A program made the position numbers and the translations under genes. A stretch of DNA of 37,939 bases from contig JABIXH010000146.1 in assembly GCA_018664975.1 (NCBI GenBank), positions 1 through 37,939 on the forward strand, read 5' to 3'. Below are positions 12,377 to 34,862 of the stretch, one piece after another. Source of the DNA: Nitrospina sp. (GTDB lineage: Bacteria > Nitrospinota > Nitrospinia > Nitrospinales > VA-1). Below the pieces are notes generated by a model, which saw only the letters and a list, made by a program, of their open reading frames with translations, made no database searches and had not been told where the DNA came from. Within the stretch, counting starts at the first letter, position 1; every line of letters starts with the position of its first letter.

Positions 12377-13741
12377 TCAGGTTTGCAAGGTTTTCTTATA
12401 CAACCGGTGAATTGCCAGAATTTTTTTTGTCAATGACTCCATATCATCAGCAATAACACGAATCATCTCTTCCTTTCGTATTCCTCCCAGATCATAAATA
12501 ATATCTGGAACCGAACCATATTCCATAAGTGCATTTTGAGTTCCCCACTCCAAGGATGACCCTTCCCGCACCCTTATTTTTTTAGGCTCATCAGCTCTAT
12601 CAAAAGAAGAAATTTTATACCGCAGGCGATGACAAATCTTTAATAACGCATCGGTATATTTGATATTCATGACTGCACGTTTTTCGGAATCCCAGCGCAT
12701 AGTCGTTAACACAATGTTTGCGACATGCCTGGAGCCACCGAACTCAGGTTCGGCACCGGTGAAAATATCATCTCCATTTTTTATGATTCGGCCGGGAATA
12801 GCAAGAACATCTCCATGATTTTTCGCATTACGTAGAGCCAACCCGATATTAGTTTGAACTTCCGGAATTAATTGTCCGATTCTTTCTTCCCTGAATATCT
12901 GAATGGCCCGATTCATTTCCTCCCTTGCATGGGCTTTCTCCCCTTCTCGATAAAGCATCGCTAAGGGTTCGACACTCGCCTTGCCCTTACCAGAGACTAC
13001 TTCTCCAAGAATGGCCTTACCAATAAAATCCTTCGCCGCTTTTACTGCCGGCAAAGTCTGCCAACCTAAAGCAAGTCCGGCAGTAATGGCTGATGAAAAA
13101 ACACAACCTGTTCCATGCGGATCCGAGTTCGATAAACGCTCCGAACTTAAAACTTCCATACCGGTACTATCCATAAAAAGATCCTCCGGTTTTCCCTTCA
13201 AATGTCCTCCGGTTAACACTACCGCCCGCACTCCTGTCTTAAGTATTTCTCGCGCCGCACGTTTCCTATCAGCAGGTTGGCGTATTTTTATTCCCGATAA
13301 TATTTCTGCCTCTTTAATATTTGGAGTTACCAGATGAGCCAAAGGGAGTAAGCGCTTTTTCATCATCTCAACCCCAGATTGGGTAAGTAGCTTTTTACCG
13401 GAAGTAGAAAAAATGACAGGATCAACGACCAGTTTTTTAATCTTGTAACGCTTGAGCAAGGCGGCTACCCGGTTGACAATATGCTCATTGCCTAACATGC
13501 CTGTTTTAACTGCCTGGCATTTATCGTCCTCCAGTATGGATTTAAGCTGGCTTTCCACTACGCTTACCGGCAAATCATCGACAGCTTGGACTCCCAGGGT
13601 ATTCTGCGAGGTGACGGAGGTTATCACCGTTTTACCAAATACCCCCAAAACAGAAAAAGTTTTAAGATCGGCTTGTATTCCCGCCCCTCCTCCGGAATCC
13701 GACCCGGCGATCGTTAAAGCTACTGAAATTCTATCAGACAT
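12377..13741 (-). CDS. thiDN: Fused HMP/HMP-P kinase (ThiD) - thiamine-phosphate synthase (ThiN)
   Basis: N-terminal [26 protein letters not shown]; C-terminal ThiN motifs [33 protein letters not shown]. Confidence 0.9.
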
Positions 13742-13833
13742 AAAATAATCTCATTAAAGTAAAAAAAAGGAGGGTTTAATGTAACAGACCGCCTTGAAAC
13801 CTGGCAATAAAATATTAACCGCTGAAAATTTCT

Positions 13834-15654
13834 TCAGGCAACGGTAACAGATTTGGCAAGAGATCGAGGTTTATCGATATTACGCTTCAGGGAGGTAGCA
13901 GTAAAATATGCAAACAACTGGCCAATGACCAGTTGAACAAGAGGAGCCGTCAGAGGGGGCACATTAGGCAAGATAAGCTCTTCACTATAAAGATCCTGGT
14001 TTTTTCCTTGTTGAGTGAAATGAATTCCCAAAACAAAACCTGACCGGGCGCGAATTTCTTCTATGCTGTGCAGAGTAGATTCGTAAAGCGCTTTATCTTC
14101 AGGAGGAGGAACAAATACTATCGAAAAAACATCATCATCAATCATAGCCAGTGTCCCGTGCTTTAAAAATCCACCCGGCATGCCTTCGGCATGAATGTAA
14201 GCAACCTCTTTCATTTTTAAAGCCGACTCCAAAGCAATGGGGTAGTAAACCCCACGCCCCAAATAGAGCCAATTGCGGCTCTTCGAATATTTACTGGCAA
14301 GGCGGTGAATAAAGCCGGATCGCTCATTCAAAATTCCCTGAATAATTTCAGGAAGCTCTTGCAAAGCTTTCAGATGCAGGTTGTAGGTTTTGCGGGTGAT
14401 TACTTTCTTTTTTAATGCAAGCTTCATAGCCACTAGGGTTAGTATCACCATTTGCGACATTGCGGCCTTGGTGCTGATCACGCAGATTTCAGGTCCCGAC
14501 CCTTGCAAAACAACTTTGTCTACCAGCCGGGCAATAGAAGAACCCATGACATTGACAACTGCCGCCGTTCGGGCGCCCTTGGCTTTGGCATGCTTCAATG
14601 CAGACAAGGTGTCAAATGTCTCACCCGACTGCGAAGCAGAAAACACCAGAGACTGTTTATTTACGTTGGCCAATGCCATAAATTCATCAGAACTGATCGA
14701 GGGAAAAAATTCTTGTGCCAATTGCGAAAATACATACTTGGCATATTTTGCTACATAAAAGGTCGTGCCCACGCCAAGCAAATAGGAGTTCCGCGATTTT
14801 GCAAATAAATCAACAACTGCATCTAATCCTGAAGGCTCCAAATCCAGTGCATTGGAGATGGTTTGGGGCTGTTCATAGATTTCTTTAAGCATATAATGTG
14901 GATAGCCACCCTTTTTGGAAGTCTCGCTGTCCCATTCAATTTTAATAATGGGCTTGGAAATTTCCTCTTTACTCAGTAGATTTTTTACAACATAGGTATC
15001 CCGAGATAGAATGGCGTACTCTCCATCATCCAGGATAACAGCATTTTTTGTATGGTCGATAAATGCATTAAAATCCGACCCCACAAACTTAATTTCATCA
15101 CCAATTCCCAACATCAGAGGGGATTCCCTTTTTGCGCAAAATATTTGCTCTGGAAGGTAAGAGGTAATAAAAGCTAATGCAAAGGTTCCTTCAATAAGGT
15201 TGAGCACCTTAATCAAGGCTTTTTCCACATTGCGACTACGGCTATAGAACTTTTCAAGAAGATGGGAAAGAATTTCGGTATCCGTGTCAGAAGAAAACTT
15301 GAAACCTTCCTTTTGTAATTGATCCCTCAAGGGTCGATAATTGGAAATAATTCCATTATGAACCACTGCAAAATTACCATCGGAAGAAGTAAACGGATGA
15401 GTATTTTCCCGCGTCACTTTTCCATGAGTTGCCCAGCGCGTATGGGCAATTCCTATCTTGCTTTTCAATTGCAGGACATTGTGTTTGCGATAAAACTCTT
15501 CCACTCCGCCAATATCTTTTTTGATGAGAAGACGAGTTTTATTCATCAAGGCCACGCCACAAGAGTCGTAACCTCGGTATTCTAAATTCCTGATTCCCTC
15601 AAAAAGAAGTTCGGATATATTCTTCAATCCGACAGCACCACTAATTCCACACAT
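13834..15654 (-). CDS. glmS: Glutamine--fructose-6-phosphate aminotransferase (isomerizing)
   Basis: MCGI Ntn nucleophile, EYRGYDS, AHTRWATHG, HNGII, SQSGET, LKMKE, KHG, LAKSVTV. Confidence 0.96.
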   Translation of the reverse strand: MCGISGAVGLKNISELLFEGIRNLEYRGYDSCGVALMNKTRLLIKKDIGGVEEFYRKHNVLQLKSKIGIAHTRWATHGKVTRENTHPFTSSDGNFAVVHNGIISNYRPLRDQLQKEGFKFSSDTDTEILSHLLEKFYSRSRNVEKALIKVLNLIEGTFALAFITSYLPEQIFCAKRESPLMLGIGDEIKFVGSDFNAFIDHTKNAVILDDGEYAILSRDTYVVKNLLSKEEISKPIIKIEWDSETSKKGGYPHYMLKEIYEQPQTISNALDLEPSGLDAVVDLFAKSRNSYLLGVGTTFYVAKYAKYVFSQLAQEFFPSISSDEFMALANVNKQSLVFSASQSGETFDTLSALKHAKAKGARTAAVVNVMGSSIARLVDKVVLQGSGPEICVISTKAAMSQMVILTLVAMKLALKKKVITRKTYNLHLKALQELPEIIQGILNERSGFIHRLASKYSKSRNWLYLGRGVYYPIALESALKMKEVAYIHAEGMPGGFLKHGTLAMIDDDVFSIVFVPPPEDKALYESTLHSIEEIRARSGFVLGIHFTQQGKNQDLYSEELILPNVPPLTAPLVQLVIGQLFAYFTATSLKRNIDKPRSLAKSVTVA

Positions 15655-15664
15655 ATATTTCCTG

Positions 15665-16870
15665 TTATTTTTGATTCACGGTATAGCAAGCAGGAAGGAT
15701 TTTCCCAGGCGCAACAACCGTGCCGGGTTGAAGGGTATTCCCCGCACCCACAACAACACCATCCCCCAAAAAAGCACCGAGTTTTGTCAATCCTGTCTCT
15801 ATTTTGCGTTTTCCATTTTTTACAGAAATAGGTTTCCAGTCAACAGTTCGGTTAACTGTCATACACCCTGCCCCCATATCCACATTTTCGCCCAGCACAC
15901 TGTCTCCCACAAAAGAGAGTCGGCCAATTTGGGAATTGTCCATTACTACACAATTTTTTAATTCCACACCACTTCCCACTGAACATTTTTTTCCAACAGA
16001 AGTATAGCTCCGGATAAGGGAATTGTTGCCAATATAGCTTCCCTCCCCTATGCAACAAGGGCCTTCCAGAACAGCACCCGATTTAATAATCGCCCCGGCC
16101 TCAATGCGCACAATTCCTTGCAGAGTAACGTTAGCTTCCAGCACTGCATTCTTGGCGATGGAAGATTCCTGCCAGGAGTCCATGATCATCTTATTCGCTG
16201 TTAAAATTTCCCAGGGATAAACCACATCCAACCATTCATCCTCCCACATGGAAGCACGCAGTCCTTCACCTGCCACCACTTTCTTCAATGCTTTCTCCAT
16301 GGATTTACCTGAAGATTCGAGCAACTTGAAAAAAGACGCCGGCAATACAAATACCCCAGACAAGACATAATTCCCAAGATTGTTTCCCTTGGGCTTTTCG
16401 ATAATTTTTGTGATTTCCATCCGTGCATTCAGGAACACATTGCCAAACATCTGATTAGAGGGAGGGAGGCAAATAGAAGCAACGGGACATTTGAAAGAAT
16501 GAAAAGATTGCTGAACTTTGCTGAAAATATTTTCTGCCGTCAAGGTATCCCCGTATAAAAGCAGGAAATATTCACCGGGGGAGATTTTATTTTTAACCTG
16601 CATCACCGCATCACCAATACCAAGCTTGCGTTTTTGCTCTACATAATGCAGGTTTAATCCATTATGAGACTGTTCCTGAAGCCGTTCGATTAACTTTTCC
16701 TGTTTATGACCCACCACCACAAAGATATCGTTAATGCCGGCATTTTTGAGCAAACTAAAAGTGTTGTCCAGCAGAGTTCGTCCCGCAATCCCAATCATGG
16801 AGATAGGTCGGGTTTCTGAAAAAGGACTAATATGGGTGCCTTCACCTGCGGCAAGGATTATAGCTTTCAT
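15665..16870 (-). CDS. Archaeal-type GlmU-like protein (nucleotidyltransferase fold + left-handed beta-helix) with degenerate catalytic motifs
   Basis: ILAAGEGT, YGD, EKP, WLDVVYPWEILTAN linker, hexapeptide repeats, GDSVLGENV, KLGAFLGD. Confidence 0.85.
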   Translation of the reverse strand: MKAIILAAGEGTHISPFSETRPISMIGIAGRTLLDNTFSLLKNAGINDIFVVVGHKQEKLIERLQEQSHNGLNLHYVEQKRKLGIGDAVMQVKNKISPGEYFLLLYGDTLTAENIFSKVQQSFHSFKCPVASICLPPSNQMFGNVFLNARMEITKIIEKPKGNNLGNYVLSGVFVLPASFFKLLESSGKSMEKALKKVVAGEGLRASMWEDEWLDVVYPWEILTANKMIMDSWQESSIAKNAVLEANVTLQGIVRIEAGAIIKSGAVLEGPCCIGEGSYIGNNSLIRSYTSVGKKCSVGSGVELKNCVVMDNSQIGRLSFVGDSVLGENVDMGAGCMTVNRTVDWKPISVKNGKRKIETGLTKLGAFLGDGVVVGAGNTLQPGTVVAPGKILPACYTVNQK

Positions 16871-16904
16871 TTGAGCAAATCCTGATTAGGAAGGAAATAG
16901 TTAG

Positions 16905-17651
16905 CTATGCGTGATGGTCCTTGAGAAGTCGTTCAGCCCGGCTCAAATCATCCGGGGAATTGATACCCAGTATCTCATCTGCGTCTGTGGTCTGAATTGC
17001 CTGAACAGAATATTCGTTTCGCACCAGACATTTTATTGTATCGGTTAAATAATATTCTTTCTGAGCATTATCAGCGCCAATATGCTCTAAGGCCTTAAAA
17101 AACAACCTATTGTCAAAACAATATACTCCGGAGTTGAATTCGTCAACTTTTTTCTCAGCTTCCGAAGCGTCTTTCAGTTCTACAATTTTTAATATGGTCC
17201 CATCTTCGTCACGAATGATCCTGCCAAAATCATGTCTCTCACTACTTTTCAAGGTTAAAAGCGTGCATTTTGCTCCATTATATTTATGCTCATCAAGCAA
17301 ACGTCCCAGAGTATCCAGCCGAATCAATGGCATATCTCCACATAAAACCACTAACCGTCCTTCAAAGTTTTCCAGCTTCGATTTGACCTGTTGGGCGGCG
17401 TGGCCAGTACCCAACTGCTCACTCTGAATCACGAACTCCAAACCTCGATCCGCAAAGGCTTCTTTGACCTGATCGGCCTGATGGCCTACTACTACTATAG
17501 TCCGAGTGGGATTTAATTTAGAAGAAAGATCAAGCACATAGTCCAGAAGGGGACGGCCAGCTAAGGGAATGAGAACTTTTGCAAGGGGGGATTTCATGCG
17601 GGTGCCTTTACCCGCCGCTAATACGAGGACCGCTAAGTCTTGATTTTGCAT
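16905..17651 (-). CDS. Stand-alone GlmU N-terminal domain (GlcNAc-1-phosphate uridyltransferase), lacking the acetyltransferase domain
   Basis: LAAGKGTRMKS---KVL, EQLGTGHA, GDMPL, GRIIR, IVE-KDA, E-NSG-Y, NAQKEYYLTD, GIN; stops at 248 aa. Confidence 0.9.
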   Translation of the reverse strand: MQNQDLAVLVLAAGKGTRMKSPLAKVLIPLAGRPLLDYVLDLSSKLNPTRTIVVVGHQADQVKEAFADRGLEFVIQSEQLGTGHAAQQVKSKLENFEGRLVVLCGDMPLIRLDTLGRLLDEHKYNGAKCTLLTLKSSERHDFGRIIRDEDGTILKIVELKDASEAEKKVDEFNSGVYCFDNRLFFKALEHIGADNAQKEYYLTDTIKCLVRNEYSVQAIQTTDADEILGINSPDDLSRAERLLKDHHA

Positions 17652-17914
17652 TCAATTTTATATTCGGCAATTTTTTTTCTTAATGTGTTGCGATTGATTC
17701 CTAAAATATTTGCGGCCTTGGTCTGGTTGCCGTTGGTTTCCTTTAAAACAATTTCAACCAGCGGTTTTTCAATTCCTCCCATGATCAACTCATGCAGATG
17801 CCCGTTGTTTCTCTCATCCATCGCGCCGACATATTGCCGGATGGATTTGTCTAACCATTTTTCCAGAAAAGTTGTAACTTGTTTTTGGGTTTTTTGCATA
17901 GCAGGAGGATTCAT
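17633..17914 (-). CDS. fis: Fis-family nucleoid-associated DNA-binding protein
   Basis: 93 aa; EKPL--VL--TNGNQTKAANILGINRNTLRKK helix-turn-helix typical of Fis. Confidence 0.8.
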   Translation of the reverse strand: MNPPAMQKTQKQVTTFLEKWLDKSIRQYVGAMDERNNGHLHELIMGGIEKPLVEIVLKETNGNQTKAANILGINRNTLRKKIAEYKIECKIKT

Positions 17915-17977
17915 TACAGCCCTGAGTTCAATTACGGTGACGTCCTCCCCAGGGTCTTATATGGCTTGAATGCGAGG

Positions 17978-18006
17978 ATATTATCAGACTCACCCCGAGT
18001 GGTCAA
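17978..18006 (-). promoter_or_regulatory. Putative sigma70 promoter of the fis-glmU-glmS unit
   Basis: Minus strand TTGACC-17 nt-TAATAT. Confidence 0.5.
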
Positions 18007-18120
18007 GCCTGGACTTGCAGGCTTTTGTAAACCATGCAATTACAAGTTGATTCCACTCCAACGCTTGGTCTAAGATGAAATAATATTATCCATAACCTTT
18101 TAACCATTGCTTTCTACTCC

Positions 18121-19440
18121 ATGAGAATTGCCTGCATTACCTTGGGATGCCGAACTAACCAGCACGACACAGCAGAAATGCAGACCCTGCTTGAGCAGGA
18201 AGGCTTTTCTATCGTCAACGGCAAAGAAAAAGCCGATGCCTATGTCATCAATACCTGTACGGTGACACAACGCAGTGATACCAGTTCCCGTCTTGCGGTT
18301 AAAAAATCCCTGGCCATCAACCCCGATGCTCTGGTTGTATTCACAGGATGCTACGCACAGTTGAACCCGGAAGAGGCCTCGCAAATCCACGGGCTCGACG
18401 TTGTACTTGGCAATGCCGACAAACTGGAAATTGCTAACCTTATAAAAAAGAAACTGTTAAACCCTGGCCAGCCGTGGGAAAAAGAAGAATCCACCGAAAT
18501 CATCATGTCCGACATCCATAGAAAACGGATATTCAGGACCATCCCGGTGCAGAATTTTCAAGGCATGACCAAAGCCTTCATCAAAGTCCAAACAGGCTGT
18601 GACGAGAGGTGTTCTTTCTGCACAGTTGTCAAAGCGCGTGGCAAGTCAGTCAGCGATACGCGGGAAAACATTCTTCAAAATGTAGAACAGGCTATTGCTT
18701 CCGGGTTTAAGGAAATCACCCTCACCGGCATCAATCTGGGTACCTGGGGAATGGAGCGAAACGAAACTTTTTCCTCTCTGGTTTATGATATCGTTGAACT
18801 TTCAGGAGATTTTCGAGTTCGGTTGAGTTCAATCAACCCCATGGAAATTGATAACGATCTCATACAGATGATGGCAGAAACTGAGAAGTTATGTTCACAC
18901 CTTCACATTCCATTACAAAGCGGTGACGATAACATCTTAAAAGCCATGCGCAGAAATTATAACCGCCGCCAATACCTCGATGTAGTTCAAAGAGCTATCA
19001 CCGCCATTCCCGGGTTGGGACTTGGGGCAGATGTTATCGTTGGCTTTCCCGGCGAAACCGAAGAAGCGTTCGAAAATACCCGCAGTCTGATAGAGCAATT
19101 TCCATTTTCCTATCTGCATGTATTTTCCTACTCACCACGCCGAGGTACTGAGGCCCACCAGATCAAAGACAGTGTCCCGGGAAATATCAAGAAACAAAGA
19201 AATCAGATATTGACACAACTGGTCCATCAAAAAGCATTGAAATATCGTGAACAATTTATAGATCAATCCGAAACCGTCCTCATTGAAAATCAACGAGACA
19301 CGAAATCCGGATGGCTTAAAGGCCATACCAGTAATTATATTCCGGTCATTCTGGAAGGTTCTGACTCATTAAAAAATAGCCTGGTTCCCGTCACCCTACA
19401 GAATATTTCCGAAAAACAGGTCACAGGATGCGTCCAGTAA
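18121..19440 (+). CDS. mtaB: tRNA t6A37 methylthiotransferase
   Basis: TLGC--N UPF0004 domain, INTCTVT, FIKVQTGCDERCSFC radical-SAM motif, LHVFSYSPR-GT, TRAM-like C-terminus. Confidence 0.88.
   Translation: MRIACITLGCRTNQHDTAEMQTLLEQEGFSIVNGKEKADAYVINTCTVTQRSDTSSRLAVKKSLAINPDALVVFTGCYAQLNPEEASQIHGLDVVLGNADKLEIANLIKKKLLNPGQPWEKEESTEIIMSDIHRKRIFRTIPVQNFQGMTKAFIKVQTGCDERCSFCTVVKARGKSVSDTRENILQNVEQAIASGFKEITLTGINLGTWGMERNETFSSLVYDIVELSGDFRVRLSSINPMEIDNDLIQMMAETEKLCSHLHIPLQSGDDNILKAMRRNYNRRQYLDVVQRAITAIPGLGLGADVIVGFPGETEEAFENTRSLIEQFPFSYLHVFSYSPRRGTEAHQIKDSVPGNIKKQRNQILTQLVHQKALKYREQFIDQSETVLIENQRDTKSGWLKGHTSNYIPVILEGSDSLKNSLVPVTLQNISEKQVTGCVQ

Positions 19441-32023: not shown

Positions 32024-34862
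<2,839 letters not shown>

Follow-up and report, generated by a model that had tools for sequence, protein, structure and literature searches.

What is the role of a GlmU-like protein in which neither half retains its catalytic residues and which still is encoded next to glmS? This question is raised by the 37,939-nucleotide contig JABIXH010000146.1 of Nitrospina sp. (assembly GCA_018664975.1), the whole of which was analysed and is called the window here. Four open reading frames (ORFs) lie head to tail on its minus strand: a Fis-like ORF, a stand-alone GlmU N-terminal domain of 248 residues (p248), an archaeal-type GlmU-like protein of 401 residues (p401), and glmS (Table 1). GlmS is the committed step towards the precursors of peptidoglycan, lipopolysaccharide and glycans. 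It is controlled by a ribozyme, by small RNAs together with RapZ, by GlmR or, in eukaryotes, by direct inhibition through UDP-N-acetylglucosamine (UDP-GlcNAc). These controls differ widely between lineages, and to our knowledge the control of GlmS is not known for most phyla. Our preferred answer, to which we give about an even chance, is that p401 would be a non-catalytic GlmU paralogue which serves GlmS as partner or regulator, modulating or organising the reaction with which the pathway begins.

Loss of catalytic residues under strong purifying selection

p401 has the same architecture and length as ST0452 of Sulfolobus tokodaii (PDB 2ggo/5z09; TIGR03992), i.e., a nucleotidyltransferase (NT) domain joined to a left-handed beta-helix (LbH) domain, and its Pfam matches belong to NT and hexapeptide-repeat (LbH) families only. 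ST0452 is also its best match in the PDB (2ggo, E 6e-53, residues 1-395). As a whole protein, p401 scores above the cut-off of the archaeal GlmU model TIGR03992 (Arch_glmU; 309.4 bits, cut-off 292.1) and below that of the bacterial model TIGR01173 (112.8 bits, cut-off 366.85).

The two active sites differ from those of ST0452. In the NT site, Arg13 is replaced by His13 and Lys23 by Ile23, VLSG is read in place of INAG such that the Asn of the NxG motif becomes Leu, and the ERGELELTD loop of ST0452 (ExELTD motif) falls into a six-residue gap of p401. In the LbH site, His308 corresponds to Arg317, Tyr311 to Phe320, and Asn322, which we take to be the Asn377 position of E. coli GlmU, to Asp331. 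Neither the NT catalytic residues nor the acetyltransferase residues expected for TIGR03992 are thus present, and p401 is a member of this family by score only. Asn340 (ST0452 Asn331) is retained, as are R287, E303 and K305, which precede the LbH motif. A review names His308 as essential for both acetyltransferase activities of ST0452 (PMC4909775, citing Zhang et al. 2015). All substitutions agree between the ST0452 alignment and the directly translated codons of the p401 motifs, and they bear out the sequence-only reading from which this work started, which had described an ORF that is intact yet degenerate in both halves. Some sources annotate p401 as bifunctional GlmU.

Further routes to a function of p401 gave little. 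An AlphaFold2 monomer computed with a 64-row Nitrospinota alignment was too poor for use in fold searches or for site geometry (mean pLDDT 65, pTM 0.50). Matches in the ESM Atlas were generic NT/hexapeptide clusters from Nitrospinota, Planctomycetota, Thorarchaeota and Thermoproteota, offering no functional lead. A link to eIF2B gamma/epsilon was considered and dropped, as it consisted of generic LbH Pfam matches that are scored equally by a canonical LbH protein of the same genome (see below).

The gene is well conserved. Among 41 related genomes from 11 genera and four families of one order, 39 carry a near-full-length orthologue with 68-99% identity, and the two without one are 57% and 71% complete. 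Identity across the order amounts to 69-72% for p401, 66-72% for glmS and 51-58% for p248, while the mean column identity over 64 species is 79% for p401 and 80% for GlmS. The ratio of nonsynonymous to synonymous substitution rates (dN/dS) was computed over 13 genus-level pairs with dS<2. It indicates strong purifying selection on p401 (0.015-0.060; NT half 0.023-0.064, LbH half 0.006-0.077), similar to that on glmS (0.030-0.056), and by this measure p401 is not decaying. p248 reaches 0.093-0.196 and evolves at three to four times the rate of p401.

The pattern at single sites was obtained from 75 sequences, namely the window and 74 Nitrospinota species. The position of the canonical Arg (13) is occupied by Asn in 37, His in 24, Lys in 11, and Asp, Arg and Gln in one sequence each; that of the canonical Lys (23) by Ile in 36, Gln in 13, Asn in 11, Lys in seven, Leu in five, and other residues in three. 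All 75 sequences share Q79, G86, D108, E158, K159, N167, R287, E303, K305, R317, F320 and N340, and 74 share D331. The catalytic residues of the NT domain are therefore free to drift, whereas the remainder of both domains is conserved, the altered LbH pocket included. The sequence-only reading had proposed to test whether orthologues share the substitutions and the synteny at dN/dS<1. The refuting picture, i.e., substitutions private to one genome, neutral decay and a canonical glmU elsewhere, has no counterpart in the 75 sequences, in the low dN/dS, or in the 120 Nitrospinota genomes searched below.

Loss of the catalytic His is not confined to Nitrospinota. A FastTree phylogeny was built from 139 rows, comprising p401 and the 138 full-length sequences (at least 370 residues) among the best 150 representatives of a library of 1.84 billion proteins; as it is rooted at the midpoint only, it separates groups without giving a direction of change. 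p401 belongs to a clade of 37 rows (SH-like support 96), where the catalytic-His position reads Arg in 30, Ser in five, Gly in two and His in none, and where the NT Arg is kept in only six. Outside this clade, 99 of 102 rows have the His, 96 the NT Arg and 82 the Asn377 equivalent. Within the clade, p401 is placed in a 14-row subclade (support 100), whose members, as far as they were looked up and have names, are Nitrospinota. Names of Heimdall-, Hod- and Thorarchaeota occur in other subclades; P0016, P0031, P0035 and P0061 are NT+LbH proteins of this kind, in which Arg replaces the catalytic His.

Probable separate genes for the UDP-GlcNAc pathway

If p401 is not catalytic, both GlmU reactions have to be provided by other genes. 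A full-length glmU, defined as a match above the TIGR01173 cut-off, was found in none of 120 Nitrospinota genomes, and none of the 17 GlmU matches in the window's own genome exceeds this cut-off, which answers the search for a full-length glmU that the sequence-only reading had proposed.

The uridyltransferase is presumably p248. It corresponds to the N-terminal pyrophosphorylase domain of the bifunctional GlmU of E. coli and S. pneumoniae, with which it also has the common glmS pathway context, and TIGR01173 covers it only at model positions 2-241 of 452 (266.3 bits over positions 2-239, below the cut-off). Compared to solved GlmU N-domains, p248 keeps LAAGKGTRMKS...K, QLGTGHA, GDMPL, EYYLTD and GIN, so family models and structure alignments both support the earlier description of an N-domain with every uridyltransferase motif and no acetyltransferase domain. 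The motif set GxGTR...K, GD, NxG and EYYxTD is complete in p248 and incomplete in p401. Matches restricted to the GlmU N-domain occur in 109 of the 120 genomes and in 55 of the 57 high-quality ones, none of them above the GlmU cut-off.

In a few genomes p248 is missing. It has been lost cleanly in G010, a 1.7-Mb Nitrospina genome of 97% completeness (L131:2995-6381, also L057), where the order is fis, a 54-nt gap, p401 and glmS, and no p248 homologue was found anywhere in that genome. Likewise, G074 (90% complete) has no p248 match. A UDPGP protein of the eukaryotic type might stand in as uridyltransferase in such genomes, but its best PDB matches are plant UDP-glucose pyrophosphorylases and not UAP. 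The protein of this family observed in G000 has 467 residues (PF01704, 485 bits; contig C163, L132:2327-3730, plus strand) and matches PDB entry 5weg best (E 1.6e-112). UDPGP-family proteins were present in all four Nitrospinota genomes checked (that of the window and those of three relatives), and none of 14 control genomes matched.

For the acetyltransferase, a candidate is found on another contig of the same genome: a stand-alone LbH protein of 265 residues, in which H-F-N-Y...N...N is intact compared to the acetyltransferase domain of ST0452. The motif is also seen in five relatives from three genera, whose ORFs were chosen by the motif itself. The gene occurs in 106 of the 120 genomes and in 56 of the 57 high-quality ones. 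This fits the earlier deduction that N-acetylation must come from another gene if p401 is non-catalytic. In contrast to bacterial GlmU, the Nitrospinota acetyltransferase would thus be a separate archaeal-type LbH protein, and p401 would not be the missing half of p248.

The 265-residue gene directly follows a gene for a phosphohexomutase of 694 residues (G000 contig C75, L130:4205-6289, plus strand). This pair recurs in G006, G010, G014 and G025, and the mutase gene lies upstream in all genomes checked. Domain I of the mutase matches GlmM best (NCBIfam glmM, 114.5 bits; GlmM structures as top PDB matches). Its N-terminal domains are GlmM-like, while the remainder, about 300 residues beyond usual mutases, yields only a marginal match to domain III.

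Synthesis of UDP-GlcNAc in Nitrospina would accordingly be spread over separate genes. GlmS would make glucosamine-6-phosphate (GlcN-6-P), the candidate GlmM-like mutase would convert it into glucosamine-1-phosphate (GlcN-1-P), the neighbouring LbH protein would acetylate the latter, and p248 would add uridine monophosphate (UMP). By these sequence-based assignments, GlmS, the mutase, the 265-residue protein and p248 would form a complete enzyme set without p401.

GlmS as the predicted partner of p401

Linkage to glmS is a common feature of p401. In the loci of 30 relatives, p248 precedes p401 in 29 and glmS follows in 28, contig ends cutting off the other two; in 26 of the loci the Fis-like gene lies upstream of p248. 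A scan of genome contigs with the clade alignment returned 323 stretches encoding relatives, from which 80 loci were kept, nearly all of them from Nitrospinota. In 73 of these, glmS is located directly downstream of p401, and contig ends account for five of the other seven. p248 is directly upstream in 73 as well, and in five loci (L057, L119, L121, L122 and L123, including G010) it is missing while p401 and glmS stay together. Pairwise distances of p401 correlate with those of GlmS (r 0.947), also when p248 is accounted for (partial correlation 0.689), and less with those of p248 given GlmS (0.358), although this is a weak and uncontrolled measure.

A metagenome scan with a five-sequence alignment of the Thorarchaeota type gave 80 loci with 96 NT+LbH ORFs, which form 23 clusters at 60% identity. 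Thirteen of the 20 clusters lacking the His include one or more members that have a same-strand glmS no more than 200 nt away, either upstream or downstream. None of the three His-type clusters shows this adjacency; here, glmS is 1.2-3.2 kb away. As the clusters are related to one another, these associations are not independent events. In contigs of the L185 type, a second GlmU-like gene abuts glmS despite the presence of a canonical GlmU. One such locus (L185:521-6194) and about 14 similar ones comprise, in this order, an NT+LbH paralogue of 405 residues, glmS, Arch_GlmM and a canonical Arch_GlmU. We do not regard this paralogue as clearly dead: it has Ser at the His308 position of ST0452, but a His one residue later and canonical NT motifs.

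A complex of GlmS (606 residues) and p401 (residues 1-392) was modelled in three runs, each protein with a 64-row alignment, together with three controls. The complex score is 0.70 (0.70, 0.68 and 0.71 in the single runs), compared to 0.00 for the best control. In a calibration, 58 of 80 solved complexes and two of 110 mismatched pairs attained the mark of 0.70; these counts are only rough, since the alignments were supplied by us. At least 90% of the contacts are common to the runs, and pLDDT of the partner is 87. All contacts of p401 are placed in the NT domain (residues 43-47, 114-126, 135-139, 145-151, 160-168 and 205-210), and the main segments of GlmS are 239-264, at the junction of its two domains, and 439-451. 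Conservation of at least 90% is seen for 28 of 36 interface residues of p401, compared to 84 of the 199 other NT residues (odds ratio 4.8 by Fisher test, p 1e-4, the residues not being independent), and for 27 of 36 interface residues of GlmS against 280 of 570 elsewhere. His-type relatives are identical to p401 at 12% of the interface and at 28% of the NT domain elsewhere, so the interface is clade-specific. We know of no solved complex of GlmS with an NT+LbH protein. The model supports, as a prediction, a binding of p401 to GlmS. The sequence-only reading had left open whether p401 is a sensor or scaffold for GlmS or for the uridyltransferase. Synteny, the retention of p401-glmS where p248 is absent, and the complex model favour GlmS.

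From a biological point of view, p401 would be a GlmU paralogue that has given up Arg and Lys of the NT site and the acetyltransferase His, and kept the residues for binding base and phosphate. Its NT domain would bind GlmS at the interdomain junction and the isomerase domain. There, it might act as regulator or scaffold of the committed step and probably report a metabolite, be it UDP-GlcNAc, an amino-sugar phosphate or acetyl-CoA. A regulatory effect of p401, the direction of this effect and the ligand are what we infer. Retention of Q79, G86, D108 and E158 throughout Nitrospinota hints at ligand binding in the dead NT site. The pocket formed by R317, F320 and D331 could bind acetyl-CoA or an amino-sugar phosphate, or could catalyse something new.

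Parallels to such a mode of action exist. GMPPA, a non-catalytic NT+LbH protein, binds the end product of its pathway and the catalytic partner GMPPB and exerts feedback control (PMC11228364). As in GMPPA-like regulators, p401 has lost catalytic residues while the fold stays under purifying selection, and GMPPA may be the closest analogue of how p401 works. In contrast to p401, GMPPA acts on its own active paralogue, whereas p401 is predicted to bind GlmS, an unrelated protein and the first enzyme of the pathway. GMPPA is absent from the PDB matches of p401 at E values up to 1e-5. GlmR (YvcK) of Bacillus subtilis binds UDP-GlcNAc and is a proposed stimulator of GlmS that is antagonised by UDP-GlcNAc (PMC7525490). 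It has no homology to p401, which is not a member of the GlmR family. For human GFAT-1, the interdomain linker is reported as critical for inhibition by UDP-GlcNAc (PMC7000685), and the modelled contact of p401 lies at the equivalent junction of GlmS. By analogy, p401 may work like GMPPA, like GlmR, or by a linker-mediated feedback as in GFAT-1.

Several observations weigh against p401 as a non-catalytic partner of GlmS. Its inactivity is deduced from residues, and the 265-residue protein is a putative GlcN-1-P acetyltransferase. Adjacency to glmS is equally expected of a plain pathway enzyme; a canonical archaeal GlmU is found one gene from glmS in the same metagenome contigs. Two deep-branching Nitrospinota loci, L120 and L124, have p248 and p401 without glmS downstream. 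Among the metagenome clusters lacking the His, seven of 20 have no adjacent glmS. Three of these have short flanks, and one is the Thorarchaeota-type cluster of seven members, the closest to the query alignment, of which three members have flanks of at least 1 kb on both sides. The association across clusters may be inherited rather than independent. The complex score is the model's own confidence, and none of the three controls pairs a canonical His-type GlmU with its own GlmS. Furthermore, the modelled interface uses the NT domain only, which leaves the conservation of the LbH domain unexplained by the model. Invariant R317 and F320 and nearly invariant D331, together with R287, E303, K305 and N340, look like a working pocket, which fits an enzyme of altered chemistry as well as a sensor. 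Finally, the orthologue in G020 (L019, G020:C220) has one in-frame TAA within its first 127 codons, which might stem from a sequencing error or mark a true pseudogene, this metagenome-assembled genome being 84% complete and 4% contaminated.

This pocket is the starting point of the first alternative, which we consider unlikely: p401 would be an acyltransferase that is active but differs in chemistry or substrate, its Arg317/Asp331 pocket acting on an amino-sugar phosphate while the dead NT domain docks to GlmS for channelling. GlcN-6-P could, e.g., be acetylated on leaving GlmS in a GNA1-like route. The invariance or, for D331, near-invariance of the pocket, including E303 and the phosphate-binding R287 and K305, the low dN/dS of the LbH half and the predicted docking, which would also suit channelling, are consistent with this, as is the mutase encoded elsewhere, which weakly matches phosphoacetylglucosamine mutase, among others, in the PDB (2dka, E 3e-5). 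However, the general-base His, reported as essential in ST0452 (PMC4909775), is absent from all 37 members of the clade. The Asn377 equivalent varies in the wider clade (Glu in six, Thr in five, Asp and Val in four each, and others), which argues against one shared catalytic solution, and the canonical acetyltransferase kept in nearly all high-quality genomes would be redundant.

It is less likely still that p401 scaffolds or regulates the split GlmU enzymes, i.e., p248, the 265-residue protein or both, instead of GlmS. It would then act on them as GMPPA acts on GMPPB, or provide a trimeric LbH platform on which an assembly like that of GlmU is formed again. The usual position of p248 upstream and the known case of GMPPA, an NT+LbH paralogue without catalysis that binds GDP-mannose and its active partner (PMC11228364), speak for it, and the conserved LbH domain could form mixed trimers. 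Against it stand G010, which lacks p248 genome-wide, and four deep-branching loci, all of which keep p401-glmS without an adjacent p248, as well as the faster evolution of p248 and the tighter distance correlation of p401 with GlmS.

A plain split GlmU, in which p401 still is the N-acetyltransferase for GlcN-1-P, carries a vestigial NT domain and works together with p248, the 265-residue protein serving another pathway, is in our view very improbable. The conserved order p248-p401-glmS, the score above the TIGR03992 cut-off and the annotation as bifunctional GlmU in some sources speak for it. Yet all three acetyltransferase positions are exchanged (His to Arg, Tyr to Phe, Asn to Asp). The 265-residue protein has the canonical residues, neighbours a GlmM-like mutase and is found almost throughout the phylum. 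Purifying selection acts on the NT half as strongly as on the LbH half, which one would not expect of a vestige, and p401 is kept where p248 is lost. The earlier statement that this is not a simple split GlmU hence holds, the missing His being common to the whole clade. That p401 is what remains of a former GlmU in decay, without present function, as its two degenerate sites and the stop codon in one of 39 orthologues might suggest, is already contradicted by its low dN/dS, its GlmS-like column identity and its near-full-length orthologues in 39 of 41 relatives, and has a negligible chance.

A non-catalytic partner of GlmS might belong to something larger. Tentatively, and with a chance well short of even, the His-less NT+LbH proteins would be an ancient family found in Nitrospinota and in archaea, Asgard lineages among them, and would consist of dedicated GlmS-binding feedback sensors of hexosamine synthesis that were mis-annotated as GlmU, a prokaryotic counterpart of GMPPA and GlmR. 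If true, such a conserved partner derived from a dead GlmU would add another principle of GlmS control, in the marine nitrite oxidiser Nitrospina and possibly in many archaea. We found no publication on a GlmU pseudoenzyme, on a GlmU-like partner of GlmS or on GlmU in Nitrospina peptidoglycan synthesis in literature outside subscription journals and supplements, and a dead GlmU-like protein as controller of amino-sugar synthesis may be undescribed. There is also a practical consequence: as some sources name p401 a bifunctional GlmU while it lacks the residues for either reaction, metabolic reconstructions of Nitrospinota would assign both reactions to p401 and overlook p248, the 265-residue LbH protein and the mutase.

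Layout of the locus and its surroundings

The coordinates agree with the tightly packed same-strand arrangement noted before: the Fis-like ORF and p248 overlap by 19 nt, 34 nt separate p248 from p401, and 10 nt separate p401 from glmS. Features of the locus and of the predicted interface are collected in Table 1.

Table 1. Genes, motifs and predicted contact segments of the p401-glmS locus, in window coordinates.
Feature	Position	Strand	Basis
Small DNA-binding protein of the Fis family (HTH_8), 93 aa, at the head of the cluster	17633..17914	-	PF02954, 54.5 bits
p248, stand-alone GlmU N-terminal domain, 248 aa, without LbH; presumed GlcNAc-1-P uridylyltransferase	16905..17651	-	GlmU models, motifs
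p401, archaeal-type NT+LbH protein, 401 aa; proposed non-catalytic GlmS partner	15665..16870	-	TIGR03992, ST0452 alignment
glmS, 606 aa	13834..15654	-	TIGR01135, 623.3 bits (cut-off 418.05)
Degenerate NT signature of p401, G9-E-G-T-H13...T-R-P-I23 (canonical GxG(T/E)R...PK)	16802..16846	-	ST0452 alignment and codon translation
Variant LbH 'active-site' motif of p401, R317-L-S-F320-VGDSVLGENV-D331	15878..15922	-	ST0452 alignment and codon translation
p401 residues 114-210, with most predicted GlmS-contacting segments (114-126, 135-139, 145-151, 160-168, 205-210)	16241..16531	-	complex model
GlmS residues 239-264, glutaminase/isomerase domain junction, predicted p401 contact	14863..14940	-	complex model
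GlmS residues 439-451, predicted p401 contact; lowest-error pairs N443 with p401 145-147 and 167-168	14302..14340	-	complex model

The first gene encodes a Fis-family protein that is not shown to be Fis, since it stays below the cut-off of the Fis equivalog NF001659 (75.1 bits, cut-off 99) and passes for the HTH_8 domain alone. GlmS starts with MCGI, consists of GATase_6 and two SIS stretches according to Pfam, and belongs to TIGR01135. No glmS ribozyme or other Rfam family was found at window positions 13000-18600 (E up to 1). A promoter and terminator scan did no better than on shuffled sequence (12 promoter-like sites against 8.5 +/- 3.3), and no operon is claimed from the promoter scan for this reason.

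The window also holds mreB-mreC-mreD and a gene for a PBP2-type transpeptidase, from which we infer that the organism builds peptidoglycan and needs UDP-GlcNAc. A 580-residue ORF at 32024-33766 (plus strand), between the ornithine carbamoyltransferase gene and tgt, has no Pfam match at E<=1e-5. At 12377-13741 (minus strand), a ThiD-ThiN fusion is encoded, i.e., a phosphomethylpyrimidine kinase joined to a ThiN-type thiamine-phosphate synthase, an arrangement typical of archaea.

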